64,000 nt of DNA. It comes from a virus. Its lineage: Duplodnaviria > Caudoviricetes. The notes beneath the pieces are model-generated. The model worked only from the letters and a program-made list of their open reading frames with translations, was not told the origin of the DNA and ran no database searches. Both the position numbers and the translations under genes were made by a program. The stretch lies in the IMG/VR virus record IMGVR_UViG_3300025589_000004, positions 1-64,000 of that record; one strand, written 5' to 3'. How positions within the stretch are numbered: the stretch's first letter is position 1; each line of letters starts with the position of its first letter. Positions 7,241 through 45,021 of this stretch are shown here, piece by piece.

Positions 7241-7308
7241 AATAATATTCCATTAAGTGATTAAATGATTTAATTAGAAATTTAGATTGTATTTATTATT
7301 ATACCATT

Positions 7309-7804: not shown

Positions 7805-7837
7805 TTTAATTTTTCTATAAATTATATATTTTGTTAT

Positions 7838-17657: not shown

Positions 17658-18155
17658 CTATTTTAAGTCTTTAATAGTAGTCTCTGGAATTTGAATTAAA
17701 TTATCTAATAATCCAGCTTTTTTATAATCAATAATTATATCTTCAGTTATCATTGATTTATCATATGGATAAACATAATATATAGTCTTAATTCCAGATA
17801 ATAAAATATGCTTAAAACAAATAAAACAAGGCATATGTGTACAATATAATATTGAATTATTTATATCTATATTATTTTTTAATGCAAAAAATAATGCATT
17901 CATTTCTGCATGAATCTCGAATAAATTACTCCAAACAGAATGTTCAGCTCTATCAAACTCTTTATTATAATTTGGAAATTTTTCATTACAATTAATAAAT
18001 CCGGAAATTGTGCCATTAATTCCAGAAGATATTATTCTATTATTCTTAACTACAATTGCAGCCACTTTAAATGAAACACATTTACTTAATTTAGCTAAAT
18101 TTAATACTATATTTGCAAATATGATATTATTAGTATTTATATTATTCAAACTCAT
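17658..18155 (-). CDS. dCMP deaminase
   Basis: HAEMNA and PCFIC zinc motifs. Confidence 0.93.
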   Translation of the reverse strand: MSLNNINTNNIIFANIVLNLAKLSKCVSFKVAAIVVKNNRIISSGINGTISGFINCNEKFPNYNKEFDRAEHSVWSNLFEIHAEMNALFFALKNNIDINNSILYCTHMPCFICFKHILLSGIKTIYYVYPYDKSMITEDIIIDYKKAGLLDNLIQIPETTIKDLK

Positions 18156-19176: not shown

Positions 19177-20622
19177 TTAATAAACAAATATTTTACCATC
19201 AGAATTTGCACCAAGAACAGAACTGTTCAAACCATCAATCTTAATGAATTGATAGAATAGACCTGCATTAAACGGTTCAGGACGAGTTGTCTCACCAATT
19301 ATTGCATCTCTGCAACGCACTCTAATACGAGGATTGAAGTCTGTGTAAACTACACGACTAATCTGTATTGGAATATAAGGAGCATATATTACTCCAGATT
19401 CCATAGGAGTGCGCCCTTTGAATCCAACAAGTGCATAATTTCCACCAGCAAAGGTATCTCTGTAGAGAGCTAATTGGTTGCCAAGCAAACCAACACGAGC
19501 AATTGAACCATTACCAACTTCAGTAAGGATAGGAGCAGCGTCTATTCCACCTTTTCCTTCATCAAGTGTAACAAAGTTGTAATTACTTGTCTGAGCTGCT
19601 CTCTGCAATAGTGTGCAAACCAACGGAGAAGCGACTACAAAGTTACCAGCACCAAGACGTGTTGTCACTGCAATATCGTTGGCTTTTGCAAGCAACTGTG
19701 TCCAAAGAGTGCCAATTCTTTCAATCTGATTGCGTCCATCAGCAGAAACAGGACTCCATACAGAAACATGTCCTTTTGACAAAGCTGAACGAACCATCTC
19801 AGAAACGCAAGCTCTATCAATTGAAGCTTGAAGCTCATAAGACAGAGCATTTGTCATTTCCTCATCAGCATTAAGCCCATGCATCTTAAGCATATCTTCT
19901 GCTAATTCCTCTGACCACATTCCACCGAGCATTCTCTCTTTTGCCTCAACTGTTGCTTTTACGAATTTGAATTGACCAGTAGGCATATTCTGACCGATAA
20001 CTGACCATTCCGCAGTTGATAGAGAAGCACCTGCAGCTGCGTTGAGCTCAATATCTCCACCATAGAGCCCCATACCAGTATTTCCAGCATAAGCAGCCCA
20101 ATAATCAGCACATGCTGAAGGTATTGTAGATGTGCTAGAAGCACCTGCGAATGTTGCATCTAAGTTATTATATCCAAGCTCTTTGCCTGCCCAATTATCA
20201 CCATCAGAGTTGAATTGACGATTGTAACCATATTCAAATCTCAAACCATAAACAAATCCGACAGGACCAGACATGGGTTGAATACCAACGAGCTCGTGAG
20301 ATATAAGTTTAGGGAATATACGTCTCAACAGTGTAATTACAATACTCGGCACTCTGGCATCAGCATTGCCACCATAAGTATCAGGCGACCATGTACCAAA
20401 TGCTCCAGTAGAAGCCGCAGCTATTCCACCTTCAGGTGCTGCTTCTTTTATAAGTTTACGATACTGATATTCACGTGCAACGTTTTCCAAAACAAGAGCG
20501 GTAGCCACTTTGGCATGTTTATTTCTGATTTTTTCGCAACCAGGATTATCTATTACTTTCTTCCACTTCTCCAGAATCATATTCTGGACTTGACTATTCA
20601 TATAAATATTGTCTCTAGACAT
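19177..20622 (-). CDS. Major capsid protein (T4 gp23-like)
   Basis: LEKWKKVID, TALVLEN, LLRRIFPKLISHELVGIQPMSGPVG, WSEELAEDM, GNFVVASP, IYAPYIP. Confidence 0.97.
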   Translation of the reverse strand: MSRDNIYMNSQVQNMILEKWKKVIDNPGCEKIRNKHAKVATALVLENVAREYQYRKLIKEAAPEGGIAAASTGAFGTWSPDTYGGNADARVPSIVITLLRRIFPKLISHELVGIQPMSGPVGFVYGLRFEYGYNRQFNSDGDNWAGKELGYNNLDATFAGASSTSTIPSACADYWAAYAGNTGMGLYGGDIELNAAAGASLSTAEWSVIGQNMPTGQFKFVKATVEAKERMLGGMWSEELAEDMLKMHGLNADEEMTNALSYELQASIDRACVSEMVRSALSKGHVSVWSPVSADGRNQIERIGTLWTQLLAKANDIAVTTRLGAGNFVVASPLVCTLLQRAAQTSNYNFVTLDEGKGGIDAAPILTEVGNGSIARVGLLGNQLALYRDTFAGGNYALVGFKGRTPMESGVIYAPYIPIQISRVVYTDFNPRIRVRCRDAIIGETTRPEPFNAGLFYQFIKIDGLNSSVLGANSDGKIFVY

Positions 20623-21494: not shown

Positions 21495-22274
21495 TTATTG
21501 TTTAATTTTATCTTTAATTAGATTATAATATTTATGATATAATTTAGATGATGCTTTGACAAAGTATTTTATCTCTTTATCTTTTGGATCGGTTGATGAT
21601 ATATCTAATCCGTGTGATAAATGTAGAATAGCTAATGGAATAACACCAACAGGTATATCATTTAGAAATGCTCTTAGACAAAAACTATAATCATAGAAAT
21701 GAAAATCAAAATCTTCATCAAAGTTTATTTTTTCAAATACTTCAGGTTTTATTGACATAAAAAGGCCGTCTATTATAGCAACTTTTTTTGGTGTAATACC
21801 AAATGAAGTAGAAAAGATATTTAATTTGAAAATATCCTCTATATTATTAACCTTATTTTTACAGTTTCTTAGTATTTCATTATTTTCAATTAAAAGTGGA
21901 TGATATACAGCACCAGTAAATGAATTTCTATCTGAATTAGACCAAAATATCTTTTCTTTTTGTTTAAAGTTGATATGTGCAGAGCCAGCAACGCCGATTA
22001 TATTGTAGTTATTATGATAATAATTTAGCTTTTCTATCAGATAATAATCAAAAACTATAACATCATCATGCATAAATACAATTGAAAGATAGTCATTTAG
22101 TTTATCTTTATTTTTTTTAATTATTTCGTTATATAATATTGGAAGTGGTTTTGTATTATTGTAGACTATCTCCAAATCTATAAAATCAGATTTATCCTCA
22201 AATAATTGTTTATTAAAGTTTTTAAATTCAGCTAAATCAGATTTTGTTGGAATTATAATTTTGATTTTTTTCAT
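21495..22274 (-). CDS. GT-A fold (GT2-like) glycosyltransferase
   Basis: [36 protein letters not shown]. Confidence 0.85.
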
Positions 22275-22706: not shown

Positions 22707-23198
22707 TTAAATTCCAGAAGAACCAAATCCACCTAAATGTCTATTAGATTTATGCATATATAACTCACTATCATCAACTTGCAGCAATTTAATCTGTGGT
22801 AATTTAAAAATTATACCTTGTACAATCTTCATACCAGACTTTAATTCTATATCATCTTTACTTGTGTTGACAACATGTATATGAACTTCATTTTGATAAC
22901 CTGGATCAACTACACATGCTAATACATCTAATCCAAACTTAACAGAAATACCTGATTTATTAAAAAATATTAAAGCATAACCTGTTGGTATATCAAACTT
23001 AATTCCAGATGAAATCAAAATACGTTCTTGTGGTTTTAGAATATATGGTTTATTATCATTAAAATCATTTGGTATAAAAAAATCAATTCCAACAGATTCA
23101 CCATTATATGCAATATTTGGAGAATTAACATCTCTAATTTTTGAATATTTAATAGTTATTTTAGCAATTTTCTCTATATCTATTTTTTTATTAAACAT
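22707..23198 (-). CDS. dut: Trimeric dUTPase
   Basis: VGIDF, NKSGIS, VVDPGYQNEV, KIVQ, RHLGGFGSSG. Confidence 0.93.
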   Translation of the reverse strand: MFNKKIDIEKIAKITIKYSKIRDVNSPNIAYNGESVGIDFFIPNDFNDNKPYILKPQERILISSGIKFDIPTGYALIFFNKSGISVKFGLDVLACVVDPGYQNEVHIHVVNTSKDDIELKSGMKIVQGIIFKLPQIKLLQVDDSELYMHKSNRHLGGFGSSGI

Positions 23199-23236
23199 AA
23201 TAATAATGTCTCCTTTTTTTTAAAAATATATTTTAA

Positions 23237-25393
23237 TTAAATTAAGTTTGTATAAAGATGTACTTTAATTTTTTTATCAGTAATATTTACTATTTTATCC
23301 ATATTAGCAATTTCTTTAATATAGTCAATTATACCATCAGATAATGTATTGTTTATTGGAACTCCGTGATAATTATAAGAAGTATTAATTAACATTTTTA
23401 CATTATATTTTTTATCTAGATAATCTAATAATTTATATATAAAATATGTATCTTTATTGTCTTCTTTTATTACTTGTGGTCTTCCTGAAAATAATCTATA
23501 ATTATAAATATTACAAAATACTCCAGCATATTTATCATAATTTTCAGAAACAAATTTATCATTATAAGTAAATGTAATAATCATGTAATAATAAGAACCT
23601 AGACATCTATTTATTTCTTCTATATTAAATACTTCTTTAATATTTTTTTCTAGTATAACTGGTGCAAATGGCATTACTTCATTTCTAGCATTAAGTAAAT
23701 TAATTATTTTAGAATTTAATTCTGTCGGTAAAGCTAATGTACTTGTATTACATAGTGCTCTTGGTCCAAATTCTAGATTATCTTTTATTATATTAACAAT
23801 ATCACCATTATATATTGATTCTGCTATTTCACTTATAATATTATTATTACTAAAATCAATATTCATCCTAATTAAACCATAATTATTACTAATAGTCTTA
23901 TAAAAATTATCAGAAATTAATTTAAAATCATTGTTTTGTTTAATTATATCTATTATATTTCGTCTACCATAAAATAGTGTATCTATATTAGTTAATTCAT
24001 TTGCTTCTATTGCAGCTATACCTATAGATGTTGCTACATCTCCAGCTAATGGTGGTACTATTAATTTTGTATTTATGAAATTATTATTTAATTTAGAATT
24101 AGAAATTATGTTTTGTATTAAACTATTATTTAATTTGACATTATAAAATAGTCCACCATTTACCACAATATAATCAAGTGGCATTTCTCTAAAAAATCTA
24201 GATTGACAATTATTAATAATATTTTTTAAAACTTCTTCTACTACATTTTGGATAATATAGCCTATAATTATTCTTTTTTTATCAACTGTATTTATCTGAT
24301 AATTACATTTTCTTTCAATTTCTTGTAAATCTAGATTAAAGCAATTATAATAATAGTTTTTAATTTCTGTCAGAAATTCTTGATATTTATTTAATTCCAA
24401 TTCTTTTATTTTATTATTATCATTACAATGATATGCACGATAATCTAGAAACATTAAATCTTTTTCTATTTGTTTTTCTAAGATTTTATTATAGTTTCTT
24501 AAAAATAATGAACAATGATTTGGAATAATTTCTTTATTTAATAAGTTAATAACTTCTATAGGAATCTGTTCTTTTATATATCTTTCATAACCAAGAAATT
24601 TATATTCATCTTGATTTTCTTTCATTCCAACAAAACTTGTAGCATATTGATAGAATAATGCTAGATAAAACAAATTATTTTCTATATATCTAGTTTTATT
24701 ATCTGTTTTAAAATATTCTTCTATATCAATTTTGAATGGAATATAGAAAATATCATTAAGATTTGAATATTTTATTCCCAAACCGCCAGGTAAAAAGTTA
24801 TTACCAAATCCATCTAATATTATAAATAATATATTTGATTTATCAAAATTTTCTGCATATTTTTTTGCAAATAAATGAGAATAATGTAGATGTATATTAT
24901 GGTGTCCAGTTAATAGCCAATTAATTTCATTTATAAGAATTCTATTTTCATTTATTTTATTATTTTTCTTTTTAATTTCTTTTATTAATAACTCTTTATA
25001 ATTTTTAAGTATATCTGGATATATATGATTTGGAAATGCTTGTTTATCTAATATATTAAAATTATTATTTTTAATTAAATTAACTATATTTATAATATTA
25101 TCATTGTTAATATATTGATTATCAATTAGATATGTATACCAATTACTAACAGCTAAGTTGATATTAAAAACTACATTAGAATCTTTTTCAAATTTATTAA
25201 TAATATCTGAAGCCAAAACTTTAATGCTTCTCTCTAAAGCTAAATTAACTGAACTATCACTTTTTATTCTACTTATTCTTTCATTTTCAATTGCATCTAT
25301 AACATTTACTTTTCCTTCTCCAATATCTTCAATAATAGCAACAGATGCATTATGTCCAAGAGAAATACCAATATTATAATTTATGTTTTTCAT
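23237..25393 (-). CDS. NodU/CmcH-family O-carbamoyltransferase
   Basis: GISLGHNASVA, ENERISRIK, HHNIH, ILDGFG, GGLFYNVKLN, PLAGD, EFGPRALCNTS, PFAP, RPQ, INTSYNYHGVPI. Confidence 0.92.
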   Translation of the reverse strand: MKNINYNIGISLGHNASVAIIEDIGEGKVNVIDAIENERISRIKSDSSVNLALERSIKVLASDIINKFEKDSNVVFNINLAVSNWYTYLIDNQYINNDNIINIVNLIKNNNFNILDKQAFPNHIYPDILKNYKELLIKEIKKKNNKINENRILINEINWLLTGHHNIHLHYSHLFAKKYAENFDKSNILFIILDGFGNNFLPGGLGIKYSNLNDIFYIPFKIDIEEYFKTDNKTRYIENNLFYLALFYQYATSFVGMKENQDEYKFLGYERYIKEQIPIEVINLLNKEIIPNHCSLFLRNYNKILEKQIEKDLMFLDYRAYHCNDNNKIKELELNKYQEFLTEIKNYYYNCFNLDLQEIERKCNYQINTVDKKRIIIGYIIQNVVEEVLKNIINNCQSRFFREMPLDYIVVNGGLFYNVKLNNSLIQNIISNSKLNNNFINTKLIVPPLAGDVATSIGIAAIEANELTNIDTLFYGRRNIIDIIKQNNDFKLISDNFYKTISNNYGLIRMNIDFSNNNIISEIAESIYNGDIVNIIKDNLEFGPRALCNTSTLALPTELNSKIINLLNARNEVMPFAPVILEKNIKEVFNIEEINRCLGSYYYMIITFTYNDKFVSENYDKYAGVFCNIYNYRLFSGRPQVIKEDNKDTYFIYKLLDYLDKKYNVKMLINTSYNYHGVPINNTLSDGIIDYIKEIANMDKIVNITDKKIKVHLYTNLI

Positions 25394-25441
25394 ACTATCC
25401 TCTTTTTTTGTTTTTTTAATAATTATAATAATTATACTAAA

Positions 25442-26896
25442 TTAAATCTTAATTTCATCTAATTTAATATTTTTATAAATAAAATATGTTGGATGATTTG
25501 TTTTAATCAAATTGATTTCACAAACTAAATCTTTTTGTAATTTATTTAAAATAACATTATTCATATAATCAAATGTTTCTTTACCAAAACAATATATATT
25601 TTTTGGTTCTATCAATTTAATCTCATCACATAAAATATCTGCAGAATTATTCACATCATCTATTGTAATTTTGTTATTATAAGTAGCATATTTGACAAGA
25701 TTAGTTATATATGGTATAGTTTTCAATTTTTTATCTTTAAGTAATTTCAATATAATTTGTCTAAATATATATGAGGTTCTAGTGAATATAAAACTTGGTT
25801 TGAAATAATCTTTTTCTAATCCACGACCAAATTTACCTGGATTTAATCCTAACATAATATCATTTCCTTTAAATAATAATCCATTTGGTAAACATAAACT
25901 ATCCAAAAAGTCTGCATCTATTTTTGTTTTTAAATTTGCTATTTTATCTTTAATTTCCAAATATCTACTCTTTTCTATAGTTTTATTATCTAAAAATAAT
26001 AATGAAGAAAACAGCATCCAAATAACATTATTACCAACATTTCTCAAATAATCAAAATCTGCAGGTAAATCAATAGCATATAAACTATTCATCAATTCAT
26101 TCTCTAACAAATAATCCTCTTTTTCTATCTTAGAATAATCAAAATAATCAAGTTGATTATATAATAATTTAAAATAATAATTTCTTTTTATTGCTTTCAA
26201 AAAATCAAATAATGGGTTTTTATATTGAATATTATGTCTTAATATCTTAATATCATTCTTTACTATATCTCTTTTTGTTTTTATATTCTTTATACTAAAC
26301 AATAAATTCCTAATTCTCTTATATTCAATATAATGCTTATTACTCTTTATGTCATCTACTACTCTATGTTTGTCATTGAAATTATCAACATTCTGATATA
26401 TTGTCGATAATACTATTGGTTTAAATAATATATGTTTAATTCCATATTTATCATCATTCTTTATTTCATTAATTAATTTATTTTTCAGTGAAATAACATC
26501 TTTTTTATTTGCTTCTTTATAATCAAAAAGGTCAAAAAGGAAAATTAAATTTATATCTTCACTTTGTATATTATTTAAATTATCAAAATATAAATTGAAA
26601 TAATATAATTGGTCAACCAAATCTCTATCAATAATAACTAATCTATATTTTTTCCGTAAGATATTATCTAACAATTGCATTTTAGTTTTGAATAATAATT
26701 CTTGGAATAACAAAACATTTTGTGGATTTCTACGTAATTCTGTTATACTTATATCATTAAAATAATTCTTAATTATATCTCTAGCATTATCTTTTACAAA
26801 TTTATTACCATTATTATTTTTGATTAGATTATTTAACTCTTCAATTACTGTAGTTTTTCCAGAAAAACAAGCACCAGAAAGAGTATATATAACCAT
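25442..26896 (-). CDS. Fusion of P-loop nucleotide kinase-like domain and uracil-DNA-glycosylase-superfamily domain
   Basis: N-terminal SGACFSGKTT and IIDRDLVD; C-terminal MLGLNPG, YITNLVK, EIKLIEPKNIYCFGK, NHPTY. Confidence 0.8.
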   Translation of the reverse strand: MVIYTLSGACFSGKTTVIEELNNLIKNNNGNKFVKDNARDIIKNYFNDISITELRRNPQNVLLFQELLFKTKMQLLDNILRKKYRLVIIDRDLVDQLYYFNLYFDNLNNIQSEDINLIFLFDLFDYKEANKKDVISLKNKLINEIKNDDKYGIKHILFKPIVLSTIYQNVDNFNDKHRVVDDIKSNKHYIEYKRIRNLLFSIKNIKTKRDIVKNDIKILRHNIQYKNPLFDFLKAIKRNYYFKLLYNQLDYFDYSKIEKEDYLLENELMNSLYAIDLPADFDYLRNVGNNVIWMLFSSLLFLDNKTIEKSRYLEIKDKIANLKTKIDADFLDSLCLPNGLLFKGNDIMLGLNPGKFGRGLEKDYFKPSFIFTRTSYIFRQIILKLLKDKKLKTIPYITNLVKYATYNNKITIDDVNNSADILCDEIKLIEPKNIYCFGKETFDYMNNVILNKLQKDLVCEINLIKTNHPTYFIYKNIKLDEIKI

Positions 26897-27303: not shown

Positions 27304-28746
27304 TTGTTTAGTTTTTTTATAAAAAGTATATCATTATTAATGATAAACAAAAATAATATACATATTTTTGGTCAATATTTTACTCCTTCATATATAGTTA
27401 AAAAATATATATTACCAGAAATTAAAGATAAACTTTATAATTATATTTGGATAGATTTATTTGCTGGTTCTGGTAATCTTATATTCCCAATTTTAGATAT
27501 TATTCCAGAAAATGAAAGAATAGATTTTTTTAAGAAACATATTTTTCTTTTTGATATCCAAGATAAGCTTGTAGATAAAATGATAACTATAGCTGAAAAT
27601 TATGGAATTCCAAAAGATATAGCACAAAAAAATATAACAAAAAGAGATTCTATTAAAGATTATCCAGTTTTTCTACTTGAATTAGATTTACCACTTTTTC
27701 ATATAACTAATCCACCATATCTTTATATAGGATATATTAGTAAACATCCAGAATTATATTATTATTCAGAATACTTCAAAGAAGAAAATCAAGGATATCA
27801 AGATTTATATCAATTAGCACTAATAAATGATTTAAGAAATAATATAAAAAATATGATTTATATAATTCCTTCTAATTTCTTATTTGGCTTTTCTGTTTCA
27901 AATAAAATAAGAAATGATTTTCTGAAATTTTATAATATAACTAAAACTATAGTTTTTGAAAAAGAGATATTTGAATATACTAAAATAAATAGTATGATAT
28001 GTTTTTTTCAAAGAAAAGAAACTAAAAAAGATACATTTAATAATATGTTTAATTTAATTAAAATAGCAAAAGATGATAAAGAAACTTCAGAGATTTGTCA
28101 AATTTGTACAAAAAAGAAATATAAATTAACTACTGAATTTGATGATTTTGTCGATAATTATTCAGCAAAAAAGCCAATAAATGTAAATTATTATTTATAC
28201 GAATCAGAAATAGTTAATAATTTTGGAAATAAAGAAGTTTTATTATTAGATGTTAATAATTACAAAAAAGTTAAAATGCAAGTTATTGAATCATTATTCA
28301 ATAAGTTGACTTATAATGTTTTGTTTCTAAAAACAATTGATTCAGGAAAAATGAATATGAATGATAAAGCTGGATTATATCTGATAAGAGATTATTATGG
28401 AGTAGATGGTATTATGGTAACTAAATCTGCAGCAAGAACACATCCAATACAATTATTTTTTAATCCAGAATTATCTATTGATAATCAATTATTATTAAAA
28501 GATTATTTTAATTTATTATTGAATTATTTTAGAGATATTTCTGATAGTAAATTTTTAACTAATTTTAAACAATCAAATTATTCATATATAAGAAAATATC
28601 TAGGATTAAGACAAGCTAAAAAACTAATACAAACATTTCCAATTTTATCGTTAAATCAGAATGAAATAGATATTATCACAAACTTAGTACAAGAAAAGGA
28701 AATAGAAAAGTTAATTGATTTTGTTAAAAAAGTTAATTCAAAATAA
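27304..28746 (+). CDS. Orphan N6-adenine DNA methyltransferase (likely start ATG 27340)
   Basis: GQYFTP, DLFAGSGN (motif I) before ITNPPY (motif IV), gamma-class order. Confidence 0.88.
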   Translation: MFSFFIKSISLLMINKNNIHIFGQYFTPSYIVKKYILPEIKDKLYNYIWIDLFAGSGNLIFPILDIIPENERIDFFKKHIFLFDIQDKLVDKMITIAENYGIPKDIAQKNITKRDSIKDYPVFLLELDLPLFHITNPPYLYIGYISKHPELYYYSEYFKEENQGYQDLYQLALINDLRNNIKNMIYIIPSNFLFGFSVSNKIRNDFLKFYNITKTIVFEKEIFEYTKINSMICFFQRKETKKDTFNNMFNLIKIAKDDKETSEICQICTKKKYKLTTEFDDFVDNYSAKKPINVNYYLYESEIVNNFGNKEVLLLDVNNYKKVKMQVIESLFNKLTYNVLFLKTIDSGKMNMNDKAGLYLIRDYYGVDGIMVTKSAARTHPIQLFFNPELSIDNQLLLKDYFNLLLNYFRDISDSKFLTNFKQSNYSYIRKYLGLRQAKKLIQTFPILSLNQNEIDIITNLVQEKEIEKLIDFVKKVNSK

Positions 28747-32600: not shown

Positions 32601-34207
32601 TTAAAATAAGTATAACTTATTTAACAAAAAAAACTATGATAACACTTCTAGAGACTGATGACATAACTGCAGCAAGAGTTGTTTCTGATAATCCAGAAAT
32701 AATTACTACTTTACATAATTATTTTGTTTTAACAGAAAAGCAATTCTATAATAACAAAATTAGATTCAAAAAAACTAGTAAAATCAATTTGTTAGGAAGA
32801 TTTAATATCGGATTAACTAAAGATATTATCTTATTTTTAATCAATTTCCTAAAAATTAATTATAATAACATTATTGTTTCAGATAAACTTAAGGAATTAT
32901 TGTCAATAACATTATTTCATGACATAAAAATTCCAATAATTAAATTTTCAGAAATTGTTTATAAACCAGAACAACAAGAAGCAATAAGAAAAGCATTAGA
33001 TGCAAGTAGAGGATTGATTATATTACCATGTGGGTTTGGAAAAAGTTTAGTTGTTGCTGGAATAATTGAATCTATACTTAATTGTCAAGAATTATTTACT
33101 AAAAATATCATAAATAACAACAGTAAAGCTATAATCTTTGTTCCAACAAAACAATTAGTTAATCAAACTTATACTGAATTTATCAAAACTTATAAAATAT
33201 CTCCAGAAAAAATAACTATGTTTACTGCAGGATTTAATTACAGTAATAATGCTAAAATAATAATCACAAATCAACAATACTATAACAAAAACTATAATAA
33301 AATACTACATAACGATATTAATATTCTAATATTTGATGAAGTACATTCTTTAAAAAAGAATAATATATCAACAAAATTTATCAGACATTTTAAAAATGCC
33401 AAATTCCTATTCGGATTATCTGCTACACTACCAAAAGAAGAAAAGGATAAATATAATCTATTAAAAATCGGCCCGGTTTTATATCAAAAAGAATATTCAG
33501 AATTAGAAACAATAAATAATACAAACAATAAATTACAAATTAATTTATATGATATAACATATAATATTAATAATAAAAAAGAAATTATAAGAAGAATAAA
33601 ATCAGATTTAGTAGAAAAAGAAATTGTTAGACTTGGTGATAAATATCAGCTTGAATGTAGTTATACATTAACAGATGAAGGAATAATATATCAAACAATT
33701 AAGAATATATTTGTTGATAAGTTAGAAAATATAAGTAATACATTATTTTTATTTGATTTTCTTGCTACAGAAGATAAAATAAAAAATATTATTGATACAA
33801 ATTTTTCTGAATTAAAAAATAAATATGATATAAATTATATTGATGGAAGAACAGATATATCTTTACGAGAAAAAATTAGAGAGAAATTTAATAATCAGAA
33901 TAATATTATTTTATTTGCACAATCACAAACATTAGGAGTTGGTATAAATATTCCAAGATTAATTAATTTAATTTTATTTAGTATACAAAGTTCAAATGTA
34001 AAGTTTATTCAAGCTGTTGGTAGATTGTTAAGAAGAGTTGATAATAAAGATGTTGTAAATATATATGATATACATACTAATATGAATTATTCAACAAATC
34101 ATTATAATAAAAGATTGTTATTATATAAAAATTATTTTAATATTAAAAACATAAAATCAATTTGTAGTGACATTGATATTAAAATAGAAAATAGACTATT
34201 TAAATAG
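32558..34207 (+). CDS. uvsW: SF2 DNA helicase (likely start ATG 32636)
   Basis: LPCGFGKS, IFVPTKQLVNQ, FDEVH, GLSAT, GVGINIPRL, QAVGRLLR. Confidence 0.9.
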   Translation: MTKSYFLENYSFLEFKISITYLTKKTMITLLETDDITAARVVSDNPEIITTLHNYFVLTEKQFYNNKIRFKKTSKINLLGRFNIGLTKDIILFLINFLKINYNNIIVSDKLKELLSITLFHDIKIPIIKFSEIVYKPEQQEAIRKALDASRGLIILPCGFGKSLVVAGIIESILNCQELFTKNIINNNSKAIIFVPTKQLVNQTYTEFIKTYKISPEKITMFTAGFNYSNNAKIIITNQQYYNKNYNKILHNDINILIFDEVHSLKKNNISTKFIRHFKNAKFLFGLSATLPKEEKDKYNLLKIGPVLYQKEYSELETINNTNNKLQINLYDITYNINNKKEIIRRIKSDLVEKEIVRLGDKYQLECSYTLTDEGIIYQTIKNIFVDKLENISNTLFLFDFLATEDKIKNIIDTNFSELKNKYDINYIDGRTDISLREKIREKFNNQNNIILFAQSQTLGVGINIPRLINLILFSIQSSNVKFIQAVGRLLRRVDNKDVVNIYDIHTNMNYSTNHYNKRLLLYKNYFNIKNIKSICSDIDIKIENRLFK

Positions 34208-34227
34208 ATATTAAATTAAACAAAAAA

Positions 34228-34617
34228 ATGAAAGAGGTTAATAAAATGATGAATAAACAAAATAGATATACACAAAGTAAATATTTAAATCAAATAAACC
34301 AAAAAAATTATTCTAATTCTAATTTTAGAAAAGAAAATAGATATATTAGAAAAATAAAAAATGAGATTAGACATGGTAATATATTTAATTTTAGATGTAA
34401 AGGTGTTGTTCTTGAAATAGTTGAGGTTGAAAAAGATAAATATAAAGCAAAGATAAAAGTTGGTGAGATGATATATGAGATACCTGTTAATCAAAATATA
34501 AGTTTACCAAATATAGTCTATGAAGATAGTAGATGTAGATGTGATTTAAATCCAAGTTTAAATATTAATGATGTTGTTGAATTATCAGTGTTTAAGATTT
34601 TAAAAAACAATAATTAA
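34228..34617 (+). CDS. Hypothetical protein
   Basis: 129 aa, basic N-terminus and beta-rich C-terminus. Confidence 0.5.
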   Translation: MKEVNKMMNKQNRYTQSKYLNQINQKNYSNSNFRKENRYIRKIKNEIRHGNIFNFRCKGVVLEIVEVEKDKYKAKIKVGEMIYEIPVNQNISLPNIVYEDSRCRCDLNPSLNINDVVELSVFKILKNNN

Positions 34618-34645
34618 TAATTGTATTAAGGAGTATTAGTATTTA

Positions 34646-35488
34646 ATGAATAATAAAATATCTATTATTTTTTATAATGTTTATTCAATTAATAAAGGAT
34701 TTATTGATGATATAAGTCGTTTATTATCAATAAATAAAGATATAGATTTTTATTTTAAAAATGAAAGTATTGAAAAAATATTAGATATATCAGAAAAAAA
34801 TAACACATTAGAATCTGTAAAAAATAATATATTAAATTTACCAAATATTATTTGGCAGTTTATTAATAATAATGCAAATAAATATGATTATATATTGTTT
34901 CTAGATAGTAATTGTAAATATATTATTAATAATTTAGAAGAATATATTAAAAATCATTTAAAGATAATAGACCATTTTTATATTATTGTGGATAATTTAG
35001 CAGATTATGTTTTTAAAAATAATTATATATTTAATTTACCATATTATGAGATAATGTTAAAATTAAAAAATAATTTAGAGATTAAATTATTGACTAATTC
35101 AAATTTTGGTTCAATATTTATTAATTTGAAAAATTTTAAGAAAATTAGTAATTATCTTGACTTATTTAATCCCACAAAAAATATTTATAGGATTTATTAT
35201 CTTGACAAAATAATTCTAGAATTATTTAAGAAAAAACAACAACCTATAATTAAATCAATTGCTATAAATAATGCTATAAATTATAATAATATTGATTTTA
35301 AAGATATGTTTTATACAACTTCAATAGAAAAAGAAACATTTAAAATTGCACTATATCATACATTTAAATCAAACATAACAACAGAAAAACAATTATTAAT
35401 TCAAGAATTAGATAAAGTGAAAAAAGATATATTAGATAGTAATAATTTACAAGATGTTATTATTCCATTTTTTAATAATATAGAATGA
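34646..35488 (+). CDS. Hypothetical protein, possibly degenerate GT-A fold
   Basis: KISIIF start and YDYILFLDSN resemble GT-A; AAGGAG RBS. Confidence 0.4.
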   Translation: MNNKISIIFYNVYSINKGFIDDISRLLSINKDIDFYFKNESIEKILDISEKNNTLESVKNNILNLPNIIWQFINNNANKYDYILFLDSNCKYIINNLEEYIKNHLKIIDHFYIIVDNLADYVFKNNYIFNLPYYEIMLKLKNNLEIKLLTNSNFGSIFINLKNFKKISNYLDLFNPTKNIYRIYYLDKIILELFKKKQQPIIKSIAINNAINYNNIDFKDMFYTTSIEKETFKIALYHTFKSNITTEKQLLIQELDKVKKDILDSNNLQDVIIPFFNNIE

Positions 35489-35575
35489 AGAAGAATATGA
35501 AAAACAAAGAAAACAAAGAAAAGAAAAGTAGAAAAAAAAGTAAAAAATAATAATTCTGATACAAAAGAATCAAAT

Positions 35576-36586
35576 GTGTCAGAAAATAAAACAAAGTTAT
35601 CTAATGAATTATTAGAACTAAAAATTGATAATATTATTAATGAATTATTTAATACAGTTATTTTATCAAAAGAAAATAAGGAAATTAATGTTAAATCTTT
35701 AATAAAAAATAAAGAGATTATAATCAACTTTTTATATAGTATATTAGATAAATATAAACAAAAAAATAAACATGAATATATAAAAGATACTATTAATCTG
35801 ATATTTATAGAAGATAATATTAAAAATTTGATTTTAGCCTTTTTAACTGGAGACGAAGAATTATTAACAGAAATAATAAAAACACAATATAATATAATAA
35901 CAGCTTTTCTAGAATATATCTCAGCATTAGAAGATGAAGATTTAAATTTACTATCAAATAATATATTTAAAACGGCGTATAATACAAATAATAATGAATA
36001 TATTTATTTAGATAGTTTAATTTCTATTTTTATTTTAGTTTATTATCTGATAACAGTATTTGTTTCTTTTGATAATAAAAATATATTAAATATAAACAAT
36101 AATAATAACGAGAATGAAGAAGAAATAAATAATAAAAAAATATTTTTTAATTTATGTTATTTATCTTCAAGATATAAAAATACAAAATATCCATTATCTT
36201 TAATAAACAGTTTATGTAACACTGAAGGCAGTGTATTAAAAATATCCTTATTATTATTTATTCATGATTTTATAATCAATAATATAGTATACTACATAAT
36301 ACATTTATTAATATTAAAACAAATAAAAAATACTGAAAATAATGTAGATATTGTTAGCAAATTAAATATATTTTATTCTACAATTCCACAGGAAGTCTAT
36401 AAAAAAACAATTTCAGATACATGTATGATATTAGAAAGAAATCTGGCAGATATATCTAGTTTTATAAATAAATTATCAATAAAAGATTCAACAGAGTTAA
36501 ATAATTCAGAATTGATAATAGAATTAGCTTTGTATAGGTTAATAATTATATTTTTAAAACTATTTTGTCAAAAATATTTAAAATAG
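35576..36586 (+). CDS. Hypothetical helical protein (true start may be ATG 35497 with a 1-nt frameshift)
   Basis: Frame open from 35501; ATG at 35497 is out of frame by one A. Confidence 0.5.
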   Translation: MSENKTKLSNELLELKIDNIINELFNTVILSKENKEINVKSLIKNKEIIINFLYSILDKYKQKNKHEYIKDTINLIFIEDNIKNLILAFLTGDEELLTEIIKTQYNIITAFLEYISALEDEDLNLLSNNIFKTAYNTNNNEYIYLDSLISIFILVYYLITVFVSFDNKNILNINNNNNENEEEINNKKIFFNLCYLSSRYKNTKYPLSLINSLCNTEGSVLKISLLLFIHDFIINNIVYYIIHLLILKQIKNTENNVDIVSKLNIFYSTIPQEVYKKTISDTCMILERNLADISSFINKLSIKDSTELNNSELIIELALYRLIIIFLKLFCQKYLK

Positions 36587-36630
36587 TATATATCCAATAG
36601 AATATTTTAAAAAAAATAGGAAATAATACT

Positions 36631-37095
36631 ATGATAATCGAATATATAGAAAATGATTCTATTAAAAATGATAATGAAATAGGTAAATTTTATAAAATTG
36701 TAAAAAATTTCAACTTAAAAAGAGACTCTGATATTAATAATAAATTTTATTCTTTAGATTTTAAGTTGAATTTATATCATTTCTTTGATATTATTCCAAA
36801 AAATAAAAAAATAGATTTATCAAAAATAGAAGAAATAGAGATAATTAAATTAGATAATAAAATGCTAAAAGAGTTTGTTAAGTATTTTTCCAATATAAAC
36901 AATAAAATAATTTTAAAAAATAAACTATTAAAATTATTAAACGCATTAAATCTAAGTTTTACAAAAACAGATATTGTAGAATTGATAACATTTTTTATTT
37001 ATAATATAAAAATAATTTCTATTAAAAAGATAAAAATTGCTCATATATTAAAGAAAATATATGAATTAATCTTAGAATTTTCTAAAAACAAATGA
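36631..37095 (+). CDS. Hypothetical protein
   Basis: 154 aa ORF with AGGA upstream. Confidence 0.5.
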   Translation: MIIEYIENDSIKNDNEIGKFYKIVKNFNLKRDSDINNKFYSLDFKLNLYHFFDIIPKNKKIDLSKIEEIEIIKLDNKMLKEFVKYFSNINNKIILKNKLLKLLNALNLSFTKTDIVELITFFIYNIKIISIKKIKIAHILKKIYELILEFSKNK

Positions 37096-37213
37096 TAATC
37101 TTTCTAAGAAAATACTATTTTGATAGATATTTTGAAAGAAAAAAAAGCAATATAATAAAAAGAATTTTTTATTTTTTAAGATATATTTTAAAAGGAAGAA
37201 AAAGGAGGAATAA

Positions 37214-38005
37214 ATGAAAAATATTAAAACTAAAATTAAAGAATCTACAGAAAATATATATTCTAGATTTATAGAATTATTAAATACTAAAGAAATAATG
37301 AAAATTCTTTATTTGTTATTTGTTATCCAAAAAATAAAATCAAATTCTAAGATATTCAAAAATCTTTTACAAAAACATAAAGAAAATTTTAATATAGATT
37401 TGTTAATGGAACAAGATTTTATTAGAAAAAATATAAAGAAAATTAGTATAATGATGTTGTTTAATTTATATAATAATAATCTTTTTAAAGAATATATCAA
37501 CAGATTTAAAAAAGAAAATATTGATAGTTTCGATTCTTTAAATAATTGGTTTAATTATATATTAAATAATCTAGAGAAAATTATAGTACAATTAACAGCA
37601 GATAAAATTTTTTTATCAATAACAAATATCAATAATAGTAATAGTAAAAAAGAAAGCAGAGATATGAATGATATATTAACAAAATTAGATTCTAATATAA
37701 TAGAACGAATATTGGATAATGAATTTAAAGAATATGTTGATTTATATAGAAAATATAATAGTAAGTATGCATTAGATTATATGTATATTTCAAACAAAAT
37801 AGATGAATTGTGGTATTTAATTTTGTTTGTTTATTTAAATAGAAAAGAAGCTGATTTAGTTAAAAAACTAGACTCTATTCCAAACGATATTTTAAATAAT
37901 ATTATATCCAAACTTTCAAAAAAAATTTGGTATAATATTACTAAAAATAAATTATGTAATTTTTTATATTATATTAATAAAAGTATAATTAAAACAAATA
38001 AATAA
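37214..38005 (+). CDS. Hypothetical protein
   Basis: 263 aa ORF, AGGAGG RBS. Confidence 0.55.
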   Translation: MKNIKTKIKESTENIYSRFIELLNTKEIMKILYLLFVIQKIKSNSKIFKNLLQKHKENFNIDLLMEQDFIRKNIKKISIMMLFNLYNNNLFKEYINRFKKENIDSFDSLNNWFNYILNNLEKIIVQLTADKIFLSITNINNSNSKKESRDMNDILTKLDSNIIERILDNEFKEYVDLYRKYNSKYALDYMYISNKIDELWYLILFVYLNRKEADLVKKLDSIPNDILNNIISKLSKKIWYNITKNKLCNFLYYINKSIIKTNK

Positions 38006-38009
38006 GGAG

Positions 38010-39263
38010 ATGATAATTATGTCAATGTTTAAAATGAAGGATAATAATGTTTGTTTAAAAAATATAGAGATAAATAAATCTTCTAATCTATTCAAGAAAA
38101 ATACACTTTTTATATATCCAGAAATTGGGAATTCAGTAACAGCAAGAGTATTATGGTTTAATATAATAGACGATATTTTACAAAATAGAAAATTATCAGA
38201 AATTTCAGATGAAGAATTGACAAAATTATTAGTATTCAATAAATATGATTTTATAATAACTAGAATTGTACATACAGTTTATAAATACAATAATCAAAAT
38301 AATAAACTTGAATCGAGTTTTGTTTATTGTGAAAAAGATAATACTTCAGAGACAAATATTAAATTAGCAAAAGATATTATAAAAAATAATAATATCAATA
38401 ATTTTAATGATTTATATAATATATTTTTAAAAGAAAAAAAAGAAAAAGTAAAAAATAATGAAATAAACTGTAAAATATGTAATATAATAGATGATATAAG
38501 AATAAAATATAGTAAGTTATTTGAAATAAAAAAAGAAAATAATATAAATGATGAAGAATTTAATAATGATTTAAAACAAATCGGCGGATTTCTTAAATTA
38601 CAAAAGAAATACAGAACCTTTGTTCCAGTTTTTGTTATTAACGATAAATTACATCCAGAAAATCACAATCAAGTAAAATTATTACTATTATATGATATCA
38701 ATGCTATATATAATCTATTTAATTTAGTAGATTCAATGAAAATATTCTTTAATAATCTATCTAAACCAGATAACTATAATCTAGAAATAAGTACTTACGA
38801 ATATAAAAACAAAATAAATACTAAGCTTAAATTGATAAAGAATATAGATCCAATAATTAATAAAAATATAATAAAAAATGAAGAAGAATTTTATAATACA
38901 TATATTAAAAATACTGGATTTGACTTAAATAATTATCTAACTAAATCAAATGAAAATGATATAAATAAATTCTATAATATAGCTATAGAAATGCTAAATT
39001 CAACAAATATAATACTTGATAAATATAATATAACAGATATTAACAAAAATAATAGTATTAATACAATAGTAGTAGATGACAATAATGATAATAATGATTT
39101 TATAAATAATAATCAAGAAATAGAGAAAATAGAAGATAATGTAAAAGAAAAAAAAGAAGAATTAAATAAAATTGAAGTAAAAGAAGATAATAGTAAGCAA
39201 AAAGAACCAGAAAATAAATCAGATGATTTTATAGAAGATTTTATAAATAGCTTAAATATATAA
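38010..39263 (+). CDS. Single-stranded DNA-binding protein (T4 gp32-like)
   Basis: H...YC...CKIC, VFVINDKLHPENHNQVK (compare gp32 LVVKDPAAPENEGKV), acidic tail DDFIEDFINSL. Confidence 0.75.
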   Translation: MIIMSMFKMKDNNVCLKNIEINKSSNLFKKNTLFIYPEIGNSVTARVLWFNIIDDILQNRKLSEISDEELTKLLVFNKYDFIITRIVHTVYKYNNQNNKLESSFVYCEKDNTSETNIKLAKDIIKNNNINNFNDLYNIFLKEKKEKVKNNEINCKICNIIDDIRIKYSKLFEIKKENNINDEEFNNDLKQIGGFLKLQKKYRTFVPVFVINDKLHPENHNQVKLLLLYDINAIYNLFNLVDSMKIFFNNLSKPDNYNLEISTYEYKNKINTKLKLIKNIDPIINKNIIKNEEEFYNTYIKNTGFDLNNYLTKSNENDINKFYNIAIEMLNSTNIILDKYNITDINKNNSINTIVVDDNNDNNDFINNNQEIEKIEDNVKEKKEELNKIEVKEDNSKQKEPENKSDDFIEDFINSLNI

Positions 39264-39288
39264 TCAACAAATACTTAACTACTTTAAT

Positions 39289-40932
39289 ATGAAAAAAAAT
39301 ATAATTTTGGAAGCCATAAAAAAAGAAGTAAGTAGAATGCGTAAAATTAAGCATATTCACTTGCTTAGTGTAGATGAGATATTAGATGTATTTAAAGGTA
39401 TTGAAAATATAAATAGTGTAAAAGAACTTGATAAAATATTGGAATTTTCAGAAAAAATAGATTTTGTTAATTGTTCTGTTTCTATTAGTAAATCTGGAGA
39501 GATTGGTGTAAAATCTAAATCTTCAGATTTGTTTACAAATACAAAAGATATTTTAAATACTGCAGAAGAAACCGGGATAGTTTCTTTTAAAGAATTTGCT
39601 AATTTTTTGAAATATCTACAAAGCAAAAATGCAGATAAATGGTTTAAAGAAATTAAAGAAAAATATTCAAATGAATTATTAGAATTATTAAATAATACTA
39701 AAAATAGAGAAATACTTACTAGTAAAATAAAAAATATATTAGGTAAACGTAAATTATCAGATAAAGAAATTAGTGAATTTAAGTTTACTACAGATAATAT
39801 AGATAGAATCCAAATTTTTGGAGAATTAGCTACACCAAACACTATGAACTTAATTAAATATCAAATGGATAAAATTACTCCAGGTGCTTTTGTAGTATTT
39901 GGTTGTGTATTATTGCTTAAAAACAAAGAAGCAAAAAAGATTACTGATTTAGATATAAGTACAACTATTATTGGTAAAAAGATAATGACAGATTTTATAA
40001 AAATATTTAATAGCAATAATTGGCATATATATTACAAAAATATAATCAATTTAATTAAATCAGATAAAATAGGAGAATTATTAAATAGCATAAAAAATCT
40101 TGTCAATTTTGTCAAAAAAAATAAAGATTATATAGACAAGAAAATAGAGGAATTTAAAAAAGAATTGGCAGAAGCTAGACAAAATGAGGATACAAATATA
40201 ACATTAACTGATATATCAAAATTATATTCTTCAGATAAGATTTTGTCTGAATATATGAAATTGATAGAAATAGTCAGAAATAGTATATTAGAAAATGCTC
40301 CTCAACAAAGTTTTCTTGGCGCACCAGAAATAGAAGGAGTAGTTATTAGAAATAAATTAAGTAATAGTATTGTCAAAATTGTCAATTTAGAAAATTTTAC
40401 ACAACGTAATATAGAGAGATGGTCAGATAACAAATATCTATCAGAATTAACAGATAAATTATTTAAAGATTTAATAGAAGGAGTATTTAAAAATCCAGAT
40501 ATTTTAAATTTATCAAGTAAGTTAAAAGAGAAAATTAATGATTGGTTATTAGCTAATCGTGGAAAAAGATTTTCTTCAATTGAAGATATAATAGAAAAAG
40601 TAGTAATTCCAGATATAGAAGACGATATTTCACAAAAATTAAATAAACTATATAATTTATCTATATTTCAGCAACAGATTAATAAGATATTTAATGAATA
40701 TATTGATGAATTAAATGAAATATACAAAAAGATTTCTTCTAAAGATAATTTAGATAATTTAGATAAAAGTATTTTGTTTAAAATAAATAAAACAAAGATA
40801 GAAATTGATGAATTATTCAAGAATTTAAATTCAGTAAAAACTATTGATAATGCAATTATTTATGTACTTAGATTTATTTTATATGATTATGGTAGCAAAA
40901 AGACAAAAGAAATAATAGAAAGTTATGTATGA
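39289..40932 (+). CDS. ATP-dependent ligase-fold (Rnl2-like) nucleotidyltransferase
   Basis: SEKIDFVN (motif I), IFGEL, FVVFG, EIEGVVIR, IVKIV in canonical order. Confidence 0.7.
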   Translation: MKKNIILEAIKKEVSRMRKIKHIHLLSVDEILDVFKGIENINSVKELDKILEFSEKIDFVNCSVSISKSGEIGVKSKSSDLFTNTKDILNTAEETGIVSFKEFANFLKYLQSKNADKWFKEIKEKYSNELLELLNNTKNREILTSKIKNILGKRKLSDKEISEFKFTTDNIDRIQIFGELATPNTMNLIKYQMDKITPGAFVVFGCVLLLKNKEAKKITDLDISTTIIGKKIMTDFIKIFNSNNWHIYYKNIINLIKSDKIGELLNSIKNLVNFVKKNKDYIDKKIEEFKKELAEARQNEDTNITLTDISKLYSSDKILSEYMKLIEIVRNSILENAPQQSFLGAPEIEGVVIRNKLSNSIVKIVNLENFTQRNIERWSDNKYLSELTDKLFKDLIEGVFKNPDILNLSSKLKEKINDWLLANRGKRFSSIEDIIEKVVIPDIEDDISQKLNKLYNLSIFQQQINKIFNEYIDELNEIYKKISSKDNLDNLDKSILFKINKTKIEIDELFKNLNSVKTIDNAIIYVLRFILYDYGSKKTKEIIESYV

Positions 40933-42685: not shown

Positions 42686-42735
42686 TTAATCTTAACCACA
42701 TTTAGTCACAATCTATTATTTGTTTTATTTATGTC

Positions 42736-42769
42736 AAAAAAAAGATAGGCAGCTGCAGCTACCTATCTT
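42736..42769 (-). terminator. Rho-independent terminator
   Basis: Minus strand AAGATAGGTAGC-TGCA-GCTGCCTATCTT followed by a T run. Confidence 0.85.
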
Positions 42770-42820
42770 AATATAATTAATTATAATATCTTAATATTTA
42801 ATTCAATATTAACAAGGAAA

Positions 42821-44468: not shown

Positions 44469-44491
44469 TAGTTTTTTTGTAAAATACTATT

Positions 44492-45019: not shown

Positions 45020-45021
45020 AA

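Follow-up and report, generated by a model that had tools for sequence, protein, structure and literature searches.

A 64,000-nucleotide stretch of viral DNA, hereafter the window, corresponds to positions 1-64,000 of a 98.8 kb IMG/VR viral contig (IMGVR_UViG_3300025589_000004; CheckV completeness ~42%) and carries on its minus strand a compact cluster of three genes centered on a carbamoyltransferase. In order, the cluster encodes a fusion of a P-loop nucleotide kinase with a uracil-DNA glycosylase (UDG)-like domain (484 aa), the carbamoyltransferase itself (718 aa), and a dUTPase-like protein (163 aa), with gaps of 48 and 38 bp between them. Elsewhere in the window lie a gene for a dCMP deaminase and a pair of genes for proteins of the thymidylate synthase (TS) fold, namely a gp42-type dCMP hydroxymethylase and a very divergent paralog, designated TS2 (Table 1). 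An earlier sequence-only reading had recognized the kinase-UDG fusion, a NodU-type carbamoyltransferase, and a dUTPase in a row, together with a distant gp42-like dCMP hydroxymethylase, a dCMP deaminase, and an extra TS paralogue. Open reading frames (ORFs) at exactly these positions and matches to Pfam and PHROG families confirmed the cluster, and the three distant genes proved equally real, the hydroxymethylase through its match to the T4 enzyme and the paralog through its predicted structure. Together, these genes delineate a candidate pathway for carbamoylated 5-hydroxymethylcytosine (5hmC).

Table 1 Genes and domains of the candidate cytosine-modification pathway, with positions in the window
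Feature	Position	Strand	Basis
dCMP deaminase	17658..18155	-	Pfam dCMP_cyt_deam_1 2.3e-18, phrog_174 1.8e-40
Trimeric dUTPase-superfamily enzyme, carbamoyltransferase-linked subfamily, 163 aa	22707..23198	-	Pfam dUTPase 2e-14, phrog dUTPase 8e-29
Putative O-carbamoyltransferase, phage 5hmC-carbamoyltransferase family (Kae1-like + YrdC-like)	23237..25393	-	Pfam, PHROG, PDB, motifs
Kinase-UDG fusion gene, 484 aa	25442..26896	-	Pfam AAA_28 (residues 6-122) and UDG (residues 348-476)
C-terminal family-4 UDG-like domain without Fe-S cysteines	25451..25924	-	Pfam UDG 7e-7
Conserved linker, residues ~229-322	25931..26212	-	"link" HMM 2e-14
P-loop nucleotide kinase domain, residues ~1-216, predicted 5-hydroxymethyl-dCMP (dNMP) kinase	26249..26896	-	Pfam AAA_28
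TS2, very divergent TS-fold paralog, 223 aa	58089..58760	+	Ends 3 nt upstream of hydroxymethylase gene
Predicted gp42-type dCMP hydroxymethylase (5-hydroxymethyl-dCMP synthase), 275 aa	58764..59591	+	T4 dCMP hydroxymethylase 1b49, specificity residues

The carbamoyltransferase matched phrog_1601 ("Nol-like carbamoyltransferase") over its full length (residues 6-702), and Pfam detected its C-terminal YrdC-like domain alone (Carbam_trans_C, 4.5e-25; no match to Carbam_trans_N). Matches in the PDB were likewise limited to the C-terminal domain (residues 515-690), and included 7xb6 (2.7e-10), NovN, TobZ, and GdmN. In an alignment with 16 viral homologs, the motifs of the YrdC-like domain were all kept (EFGPRALCNTS, MPFAPV, GRPQ, and INTSYN), and the metal-binding motifs of the Kae1-like domain, which read HHNIH, LDGFGN, and PLAGD in the window protein, corresponded to THHDAHA, ADGFGN, and PLAGDQG in the family. 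Every conserved block was retained relative to these homologs, including HHxxH, DGFGN, GGxFYNVKLNN, and QYATSF-x-GMKENQDEYKFLGYE, with EYK.LGY following QYATSF within one conserved block, and the ~130 surplus residues of the window protein correspond to N/K/I-rich insertions.

The biochemical reference for this family is a 63-kDa metagenomic carbamoyltransferase associated with TS homologs and purified by Yang et al. 2021 (PMC8670742). This enzyme requires carbamoyl phosphate and ATP and produces 5-carbamoyloxymethylcytosine, with nearly 100% conversion of 5hmC in single-stranded DNA (oligonucleotides), ~60% conversion of 5hmdCTP, and no activity on 5mdCTP and 5hmdUTP. The sequence-only reading had described this chemistry as established, which is an accurate account of the published work. 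In the same study, a PRA-PH/MazG-type pyrophosphohydrolase (T4 gp56-like) and a dCMP deaminase co-occur with the carbamoyltransferase. Hallmark motifs shared with this validated enzyme, together with 55-69% identity across such blocks, place the window protein, by sequence, in the same family.

The predicted hydroxymethylase had no Pfam match, even with the TS model in a six-frame search, and its best PDB match was T4 dCMP hydroxymethylase (dCH; 1b49, E = 6.4e-33), with DFVC of the window protein aligned to DFMC of T4, which contains the catalytic Cys148. Equivalents of T4 Cys148, Asp179, Glu60, Arg123/124, Arg168/Ser169, and His216/Tyr218 are all kept, and at the pyrimidine-specificity Asp (T4 Asp179, equivalent to EcThyA N177) the window YLND is aligned to T4 FRND. 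The nature of the C5 group is a relevant question here because gp42-like enzymes of RB69 and many T4-like phages were shown in 2026 to be flavin-dependent 5-hydroxy-dCMP synthases (Lee et al., NAR 2026, PMC13326640). Residue diagnostics are available from the same work, in which N177D marks the choice of cytosine, an acidic residue at L143 marks hydroxymethylation, and D169N marks 5-hydroxy-dCMP synthases. In EcThyA numbering, the window protein carries L143D (N-D-F-V-C) and N177D (L-N-D), and D169 is kept (R-S-Q-D). This is the residue pattern predicted for a 5-hydroxymethyl-dCMP (5hm-dCMP) synthase; it excludes a thymidylate synthase or dUMP hydroxymethylase and argues against a 5-hydroxy-dCMP synthase. 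Asp occupies positions 143 and 177 in all 51 linked TS homologs first detected among related viral loci, and in a tree the window protein groups with the TS of two of these loci (L010 and L012). The role of the dCMP deaminase would be as in T4, i.e. supply of dUMP and balance of the dC/dT pools.

To place these genes in a broader context, we relied on an IMG/VR scan that recovered 57 viral loci with carbamoyltransferase homologs (~30% identity), in which ORFs were called and searched with the contig proteins and then with family hidden Markov models (HMMs), counting genes located <=6 kb from the carbamoyltransferase. A TS-family gene was identified in 49/57 loci, most of the eight loci without one ending at a contig edge, and two TS-family genes were identified in 33/57. 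The kinase family was present in 34 of these loci, the dUTPase-like subfamily in 20, the dCMP deaminase in 15, and the UDG-like domain in six (five kinase-fused, one free-standing). Dozens of viral contigs thus have the same families near a carbamoyltransferase homolog, and this grouping is not due to chance; both TS2 and the UDG-like domain belong to this conserved module. Gene orders were of several types: carbamoyltransferase, kinase, TS-a, dUTPase-like, and TS-b (type A); carbamoyltransferase, kinase-UDG, and TS2 and/or TS (type B); carbamoyltransferase, TS2, and TS (type C); and kinase, TS, and carbamoyltransferase (type D). Locus L010 holds in one block UDG-like, carbamoyltransferase, kinase, TS2, dUTPase-like, gp42-like TS, and deaminase genes, the same seven parts that the window distributes over three places. 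A type A module is also present in a cultured phage, Bacteroides fragilis phage BF503P2 (OP172671).

Several of these related modules include additional features. In type A modules (loci in the range L001-L052; for example L008:8410-9216 and L002:8394-9227), TS-a carries D169N, the 5-hydroxy-dCMP signature, in 12/14 cases, and its partner TS-b keeps the Asp, so that two-TS modules, including that of BF503P2, may yield nucleotides of both 5-hydroxy- and 5-hydroxymethyl-cytosine. Both TS paralogs of the window keep Asp at this position. In about ten type C modules, an NAD-dependent sugar epimerase/dehydratase (Pfam Epimerase 9e-47) lies between TS2 and TS (L057:8414-9403, L031, L034, L035, L041, L046, L060, and others), hinting at a sugar branch in some relatives; it has no counterpart on the window's contig. 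Finally, a ~164-aa family with weak P-loop kinase matches alone stands in place of the usual kinase at L031:3831-4319 and in 11 other type C loci, and its presence in these otherwise kinase-less modules suggests that a nucleotide kinase may be near-universal in carbamoyltransferase modules.

The kinase-UDG fusion is not an assembly artefact, since it is encoded by one continuous ORF and ~20 other cluster representatives show the same architecture. These relatives were obtained by an exhaustive profile search of 1.84 billion representatives, which yielded >100 clusters of stand-alone kinases (~200 aa), ~21 clusters of full kinase-UDG fusions (407-504 aa), and a few free linker-plus-UDG proteins. 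Word-indexed searches with the fusion returned one relative, and neither a close-relative scan of viral contigs nor a tblastn search of GenBank phages returned a match to the protein or its halves. The conserved linker accompanies the UDG-like domain even when the latter stands alone (P0022/P0023 carry ~90 residues before the Pfam UDG match). When compared to the PDB, the profile of the kinase family matched a deoxynucleoside kinase (dNK; 8puu, 5e-4) and, more weakly, deoxycytidine kinase (dCK) and thymidylate kinase (TMPK), and individual relatives matched Pfam dNK (2.5e-7, P0004) and Thymidylate_kin (3.8e-4). A P-loop and a DRxxxD motif were found in 135/136 family members. No match between T4 gp1 and this kinase family was seen, and orthology to gp1 is not claimed. 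In one relative (P0064, 471 aa), the kinase (residues 7-178) is fused to a TS-a-type domain (residues 241-451), and this link to an enzyme that produces the modified mononucleotide argues that the same mononucleotide is the substrate of the kinase. Lee et al. needed dNMP kinases for incorporation of 5-hydroxy-dC (5hodC) into DNA (PMC13326640).

The profile of the UDG-like family matched family-4 UDG 4zbx over the whole domain (1.6e-10), as well as TM0511 and Thermus thermophilus UDG. All 20 fusion representatives retain KPSF with its stacking Phe, YITN with its base-contacting Asn, and HPT with the His of motif B, and motif A reads GEAPG in 19/20, the window copy (GLNPG) being the sole exception. 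Just one Cys is conserved across the domain in these 20 representatives, so that the Fe-S cluster of family-4 UDGs is missing in the fusions. The pocket, as far as its conserved residues indicate, looks built for a uracil-like base. Our guess, made with low confidence, is that the domain surveys for uracil or deaminated bases, or else tethers precursor synthesis to DNA, and it may conceivably be a new kind of module that links the reading or proofreading of bases to precursor synthesis. AF2 modelled the fusion poorly (pLDDT 49), and no structural statement is made on the UDG-like domain or the domain interface.

The best matches of the dUTPase-like protein were trimeric dUTPases (E = 1e-13), and it scored under the NCBIfam dut cut-off (79.5 vs. 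103 bits). Motif I (GIDF), the Asp and Tyr of motif III, and motif V (GGFGSSG) are intact, and changes are seen in motifs II (KSG), III (YQNE), and IV (KIVQ). The linked subfamily shares these changes, with KSG in motif II, D-x-x-Y-Q in motif III, and K-x-x-Q in motif IV, i.e. Lys replaces Arg in motifs II and IV, and Gln or Lys replaces Arg in motif III. The sequence-only reading had suggested looking for a dCTPase elsewhere in the genome. No enzyme of the PRA-PH/MazG type known from published modules was found on the 98.8 kb contig, which represents ~42% of the genome, and for this reason the dUTPase-like protein becomes a possible dCTPase. In a complementarity test, in which a MazG-type family was expected in modules without the dUTPase-like gene, clustering of the unassigned ORFs in the 57 loci gave a candidate cluster that corresponded to another weak P-loop kinase, and no MazG-like family within the 6 kb limit. 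We tentatively propose, at somewhat under even odds, that the dUTPase-like enzyme supplies the dCTPase function needed for full replacement of cytosine; if true, this linked subfamily would be the first trimeric phage dCTPase.

These components can be assembled into a predicted route. The dUTPase-like enzyme and the dCMP deaminase would first reshape the host dNTP pool, with hydrolysis of dUTP and possibly of dCTP, and dCMP would be obtained from dCTP or dCDP. The gp42-type enzyme would then hydroxymethylate dCMP at C5, with methylene-tetrahydrofolate as the donor, the kinase portion of the fusion would convert the resulting 5hm-dCMP to 5hm-dCDP, and host NDP kinase would produce 5hm-dCTP for incorporation into phage DNA. 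In the carbamoyltransferase, carbamoyl-AMP would be formed from host carbamoyl phosphate and ATP in the YrdC-like domain, and the carbamoyl group transferred to the 5-CH2OH in the Kae1-like domain, so that 5-carbamoyloxymethylcytosine would arise with either 5hm-dCTP or single-stranded DNA at the fork as the acceptor. We give a probability of roughly 70% to this reading as a whole, i.e. a split cytosine-replacement pathway in which dCMP is hydroxymethylated, raised to the di- and triphosphate, and incorporated into DNA, and in which the hydroxymethyl group is carbamoylated. It draws on family membership, folds, catalytic residues, and gene linkage in this phage, and on chemistry documented in the literature for one family member. 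The combination of hmC synthesis and carbamoylation put forward by the sequence-only reading is upheld by both key proteins, with hallmark motifs of the validated enzyme in one and the residues of a 5hm-dCMP synthase in the other. If each enzyme uses the substrate assigned to it here, virions would be expected to carry 5-carbamoyloxymethylcytosine, presumably to the point of full cytosine replacement, and the modification would probably protect the phage from restriction.

Several points weigh against this reading. Identity to the validated enzyme, whose sequence is provided in the methods of Yang et al., rests on two short segments, the only ones compared (69% over 26 aa and 55% over 47 aa). 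The module is split in the window, with the TS pair 32 kb from the carbamoyltransferase, and several of the 57 related loci are near-duplicates, meaning that counts across them are not independent. On the 98.8 kb contig (~42% of the genome), no Pfam match to a carbamoyl phosphate synthetase (CPSase) or carbamate kinase indicates a source of carbamoyl phosphate, and there is no proven dCTPase, with no Pfam match to MazG or PRA-PH; ThyA and ThyX likewise gave no Pfam match. According to a 2026 preprint, hydrolysis of dCTP is still to be demonstrated for any trimeric phage dUTPase. Public runs with sequence of this phage are activated-sludge metagenomes from 2016, some of which are possibly the source of the assembly, and the phage is present in them solely as assembled contigs, which cannot show modification. 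Runs with a small share of the sequence, one of them from a hot spring, were left aside and carry no information on habitat. Lastly, the strict linkage of TS2 to the carbamoyltransferase suggests that the two-enzyme route is incomplete and that the final base may differ.

TS2 is the main unexplained part of the module, since the published pathway needs no second TS-fold enzyme. The protein had no match in Pfam, PHROGs, or NCBIfam, and its TS-like nature emerged from a predicted structure (AF2, pLDDT 87), for which all Foldseek and VIA-align matches belonged to the TS superfamily (Z 10-12, residues 5-223). Highest among these was the flavin dCMP monooxygenase 9iqc (Z 12.0), followed by MilA (11.4), AfhB (11.4), T4 dCH (11.0), and classical TS (~10); matches in BFVD were to TS/dCH, and the ESM Atlas provided nothing usable because its model of TS2 was poor. 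Residues R134/R135, C159, R175-A-S-D178, and D186 are invariant or near-invariant across 13 sequences. An hhalign comparison of TS2 with the linked TS family (E = 2.4e-5) superimposed RR, D-x-x-C, R-x-S-D, and the specificity Asp on the TS catalytic core, and in this profile-profile alignment Asp is found at EcThyA positions 143, 169, and 177. For the folate elements and general-base Glu (EcThyA E58), ~70 core columns align and the model ends near EcThyA 212; an equivalent of the E-x-x-W-Y motif was not recognised in the alignment. An origin of TS2 as a diverged TS-a of type A modules was considered and rejected, as TS2 is equidistant from every TS clade.

These features of TS2 raise the question of whether 5-carbamoyloxymethylcytosine could be an intermediate, with a further C5 step performed by TS2 or another module gene and an undescribed cytosine derivative as the virion base. 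One possibility for such a step would be a Michael addition at C6, departure of the carbamate, and capture of another nucleophile. TS2 was found beside the carbamoyltransferase in 14/14 independently fetched viral loci, in a search that started from TS2 itself, and it retains the Arg-Arg pair, the catalytic Cys, R-x-S-D, and the specificity Asp. The published route needs one hydroxymethylase, and 33/57 modules include two TS-family genes; activation followed by substitution would moreover follow the logic of thymidine hypermodification (PMC8989533). However, 14 modules contain one TS and lack TS2, the product of the validated enzyme is stable enough for measurement, no candidate enzyme supplying a nucleophile is linked in the window, and the chemistry is conjectural and without precedent for a TS fold. 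We consider this extension of the pathway unlikely. The sequence-only reading had mentioned a possible further elaboration by the extra TS paralogue or the glycosyltransferases (GTs); no GT of the window could be connected to the pathway.

These GTs are also central to another explanation, in which the carbamoyltransferase acts on something other than a nucleobase, either a sugar attached to hmC by a phage GT or a cell-envelope glycan, as do its NodU/TobZ relatives. A GT2-like gene (21495-22274, minus strand; Pfam Glyco_tranf_2_5 1e-10) is indeed located two genes downstream of the dUTPase-like gene on the same strand, two more GT-like genes are found at 40929-42128 and 45396-46775, and elsewhere carbamoyltransferases adjoin GT1 genes in unmodified contigs (PMC8670742). 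The epimerase found between TS2 and TS in ten type C modules would fit the same idea. None of the three GT-like proteins showed a sequence match to solved DNA glycosyltransferases, a result that neither links nor excludes them, and the GT2-like protein had no PDB match. Against a sugar substrate, the tested member of the TS-linked phage family to which the window enzyme belongs modifies 5hmC directly, the genes next to the carbamoyltransferase serve nucleotide metabolism, homologs of the window GTs are lacking from the 57 related loci, and the contig has no epimerase. Carbamoylation of a sugar thus appears decidedly unlikely.

We regard as still less probable that the gp42-type enzyme makes another C5 product, either 5-hydroxy-dCMP as in RB69 or 5-methyl-dCMP, with the carbamoyl group placed elsewhere or absent. 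This option is raised by the many T4-like gp42-like enzymes that are flavin-dependent 5-hydroxy-dCMP synthases (PMC13326640), by D169N in 12/14 members of the TS-a clade of type A modules, and by the best structural match of TS2, a flavin-dependent dCMP monooxygenase whose Z score of 12.0 is, however, within ~1 Z of those of MilA and T4 dCH. Both TS and TS2 of the window have Asp at the D169 and L143 positions, which is the hydroxymethylase pattern, and the validated carbamoyltransferase needs a hydroxymethyl group and rejects 5mdCTP (PMC8670742). Least probable of all, and hardly credible, is a DNA-level role of the kinase-UDG fusion, in which 5hmC would be flipped out of the DNA and phosphorylated ahead of a substitution: the combination of a P-loop kinase and a DNA-glycosylase-type domain that keeps its base-pocket residues does resemble 5-HMUDK with the glycosylase-like transferase aGPT-Pplase (PMC8989533), but the match to the validated 5-hmdU DNA kinase M6 gp54 is confined to the P-loop (hhalign probability 36%, 32 columns; nothing further by BLASTP), the kinase matches dNK/TMPK better, is mostly stand-alone (>100 clusters vs. 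~21 fusions), and is TS-fused in P0064, aGPT-Pplases have a helix-hairpin-helix rather than a UDG fold (PMC8989533), and the phosphoryl and carbamoyl groups would be rivals for a single hydroxyl.

The split cytosine-replacement pathway that we favour is encoded by a deep-branching, uncultured T4-like phage, whose proteins are also found on a 108 kb contig. T4-type core proteins in the window include the gp23 capsid protein (19177-20622), the gp20 portal (60538-62430), a prohead protease, UvsX, UvsY, a gp41-like helicase, and a gp55-like sigma factor, and a gp43-type DNA polymerase and large terminase are encoded on the contig past the window end. Identity of the capsid protein to cultured phages is <=31%. 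The G+C content of the window is ~22%; the region 34000-47000 has a very low G+C (16-19% at 34-40 kb) and many ORFs without a family match, along with the GT-like genes at 40929-42128 and 45396-46775, whose target could be DNA or a glycan. In DNA of this composition a promoter scan was uninformative (98 matches vs. 77 expected), and a terminator scan found none, with no terminator-like site between the three minus-strand genes.

Other genes of this contig touch on nucleotide or DNA metabolism. Anaerobic ribonucleotide reductase NrdD and its activase NrdG (5315-8482, minus strand) suggest a host that grows anaerobically, if only intermittently. An N6-adenine DNA methyltransferase-like gene (27304-28746, plus strand) is divergent from the kinase-UDG gene, and another DNA methyltransferase-like gene is located close to the terminase (contig 88582-89433; L059:6582-7433, minus strand), so that the phage may methylate adenine too. 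A radical-SAM protein (contig 70219-71121; L058:6219-7121, minus strand) matched a PHROG annotated "Fe-S oxidoreductase" (1e-47) and, weakly, the viperin family, and a HAD-type 5'-3' deoxyribonucleotidase-like protein is encoded at contig 87784-88530 (L059:5784-6530, minus strand); both have a possible bearing on nucleotide pools and are unlinked to the module in other loci. Shortly past the DNA polymerase gene, an HNH endonuclease-like gene (phrog_1314, 2.6e-42; contig 83048-84451; L059:1048-2451, plus strand) may be a homing endonuclease.

Which of the restriction, CRISPR, and other nuclease defences a phage evades depends on its modified bases, which are also a source of enzymes for epigenetic sequencing. 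The route to 5-carbamoyloxymethylcytosine (5cmdC) has so far been shown in vitro alone, with one metagenomic enzyme, and the window places it in a T4-like genome. The conserved module is also larger than the published enzyme pair, as it includes a kinase that is sometimes UDG- or TS-fused, a dUTPase-like subfamily, and the database-invisible TS2. A cultured relative with a sister module, B. fragilis phage BF503P2, is available for wet work.

Among known systems, the window most directly resembles the 5cmdC route (Yang et al., PMC8670742), with which it shares the two-domain family, its motifs, the linkage to a cytosine-type TS and a deaminase, and the expected chemistry. The window enzyme is longer (718 aa vs. 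~550 aa) as a result of low-complexity insertions, its module is split over 32 kb of a T4-like genome, the place of the PRA-PH/MazG-type pyrophosphohydrolase of the paper is taken by a trimeric dUTPase-like gene, and TS2 and the kinase-UDG fusion are outside the published description. Similarities to the hmC pathway of T4 (gp42, gp1, gp56, cd, and alpha/beta-glucosyltransferases) include the gp42-type enzyme with identical catalytic and specificity residues, the dCMP deaminase, pre-replicative synthesis with later decoration of the hydroxymethyl group, and a T4-like gene complement (gp23, gp20, gp43, UvsX/Y, gp41, and gp55). In contrast to T4, the predicted decoration is carbamoylation rather than glucosylation, there is an extra TS-fold paralog, the kinase is of the dNK/TMPK type and UDG-fused with no link to gp1 seen, and the pyrophosphatase candidate has a trimeric dUTPase fold, whereas gp56 is all-alpha.

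The 5-hydroxy-dCMP synthases (RB69 gp48, DLP3 gp80, and HY126 AfhB; PMC13326640) are likewise TS-fold enzymes that act on dCMP in T4-like phages, and TS2 is similar to them in size (~205-230 aa) and has them among its best structural matches (9iqc, Z 12.0; 9iqu, Z 11.4). Yet neither TS nor TS2 of the window carries D169N, and no arabinose or UDP-sugar genes are linked. Family-4 UDGs (Sulfolobus tokodaii 4zbx, Thermotoga maritima TM0511, and T. thermophilus UDGA) share with the C-terminal domain of the fusion a whole-domain profile match and the conserved Phe, Asn, and His, whereas the window domain is devoid of Fe-S cysteines, linker-fused to a kinase, and has GLNPG in place of GE(A/G)PG. Thymidine hypermodification (5-HMUDK with aGPT-Pplase/AADT; Lee et al., NAR 2021, PMC8989533) offers a parallel in that a cluster with a P-loop kinase and a glycosylase-like protein decorates a 5-hydroxymethylpyrimidine, but its target is 5-hydroxymethyluracil (5hmU) in DNA, its kinase is unrelated past the P-loop, and the fold of its glycosylase-like protein is different. 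Overall, the core of the window's system is the known 5cmdC route grafted onto a T4-type precursor logic, with the kinase-UDG fusion, the trimeric dUTPase-like subfamily, TS2, and the split T4-like layout as departures from what has been published.

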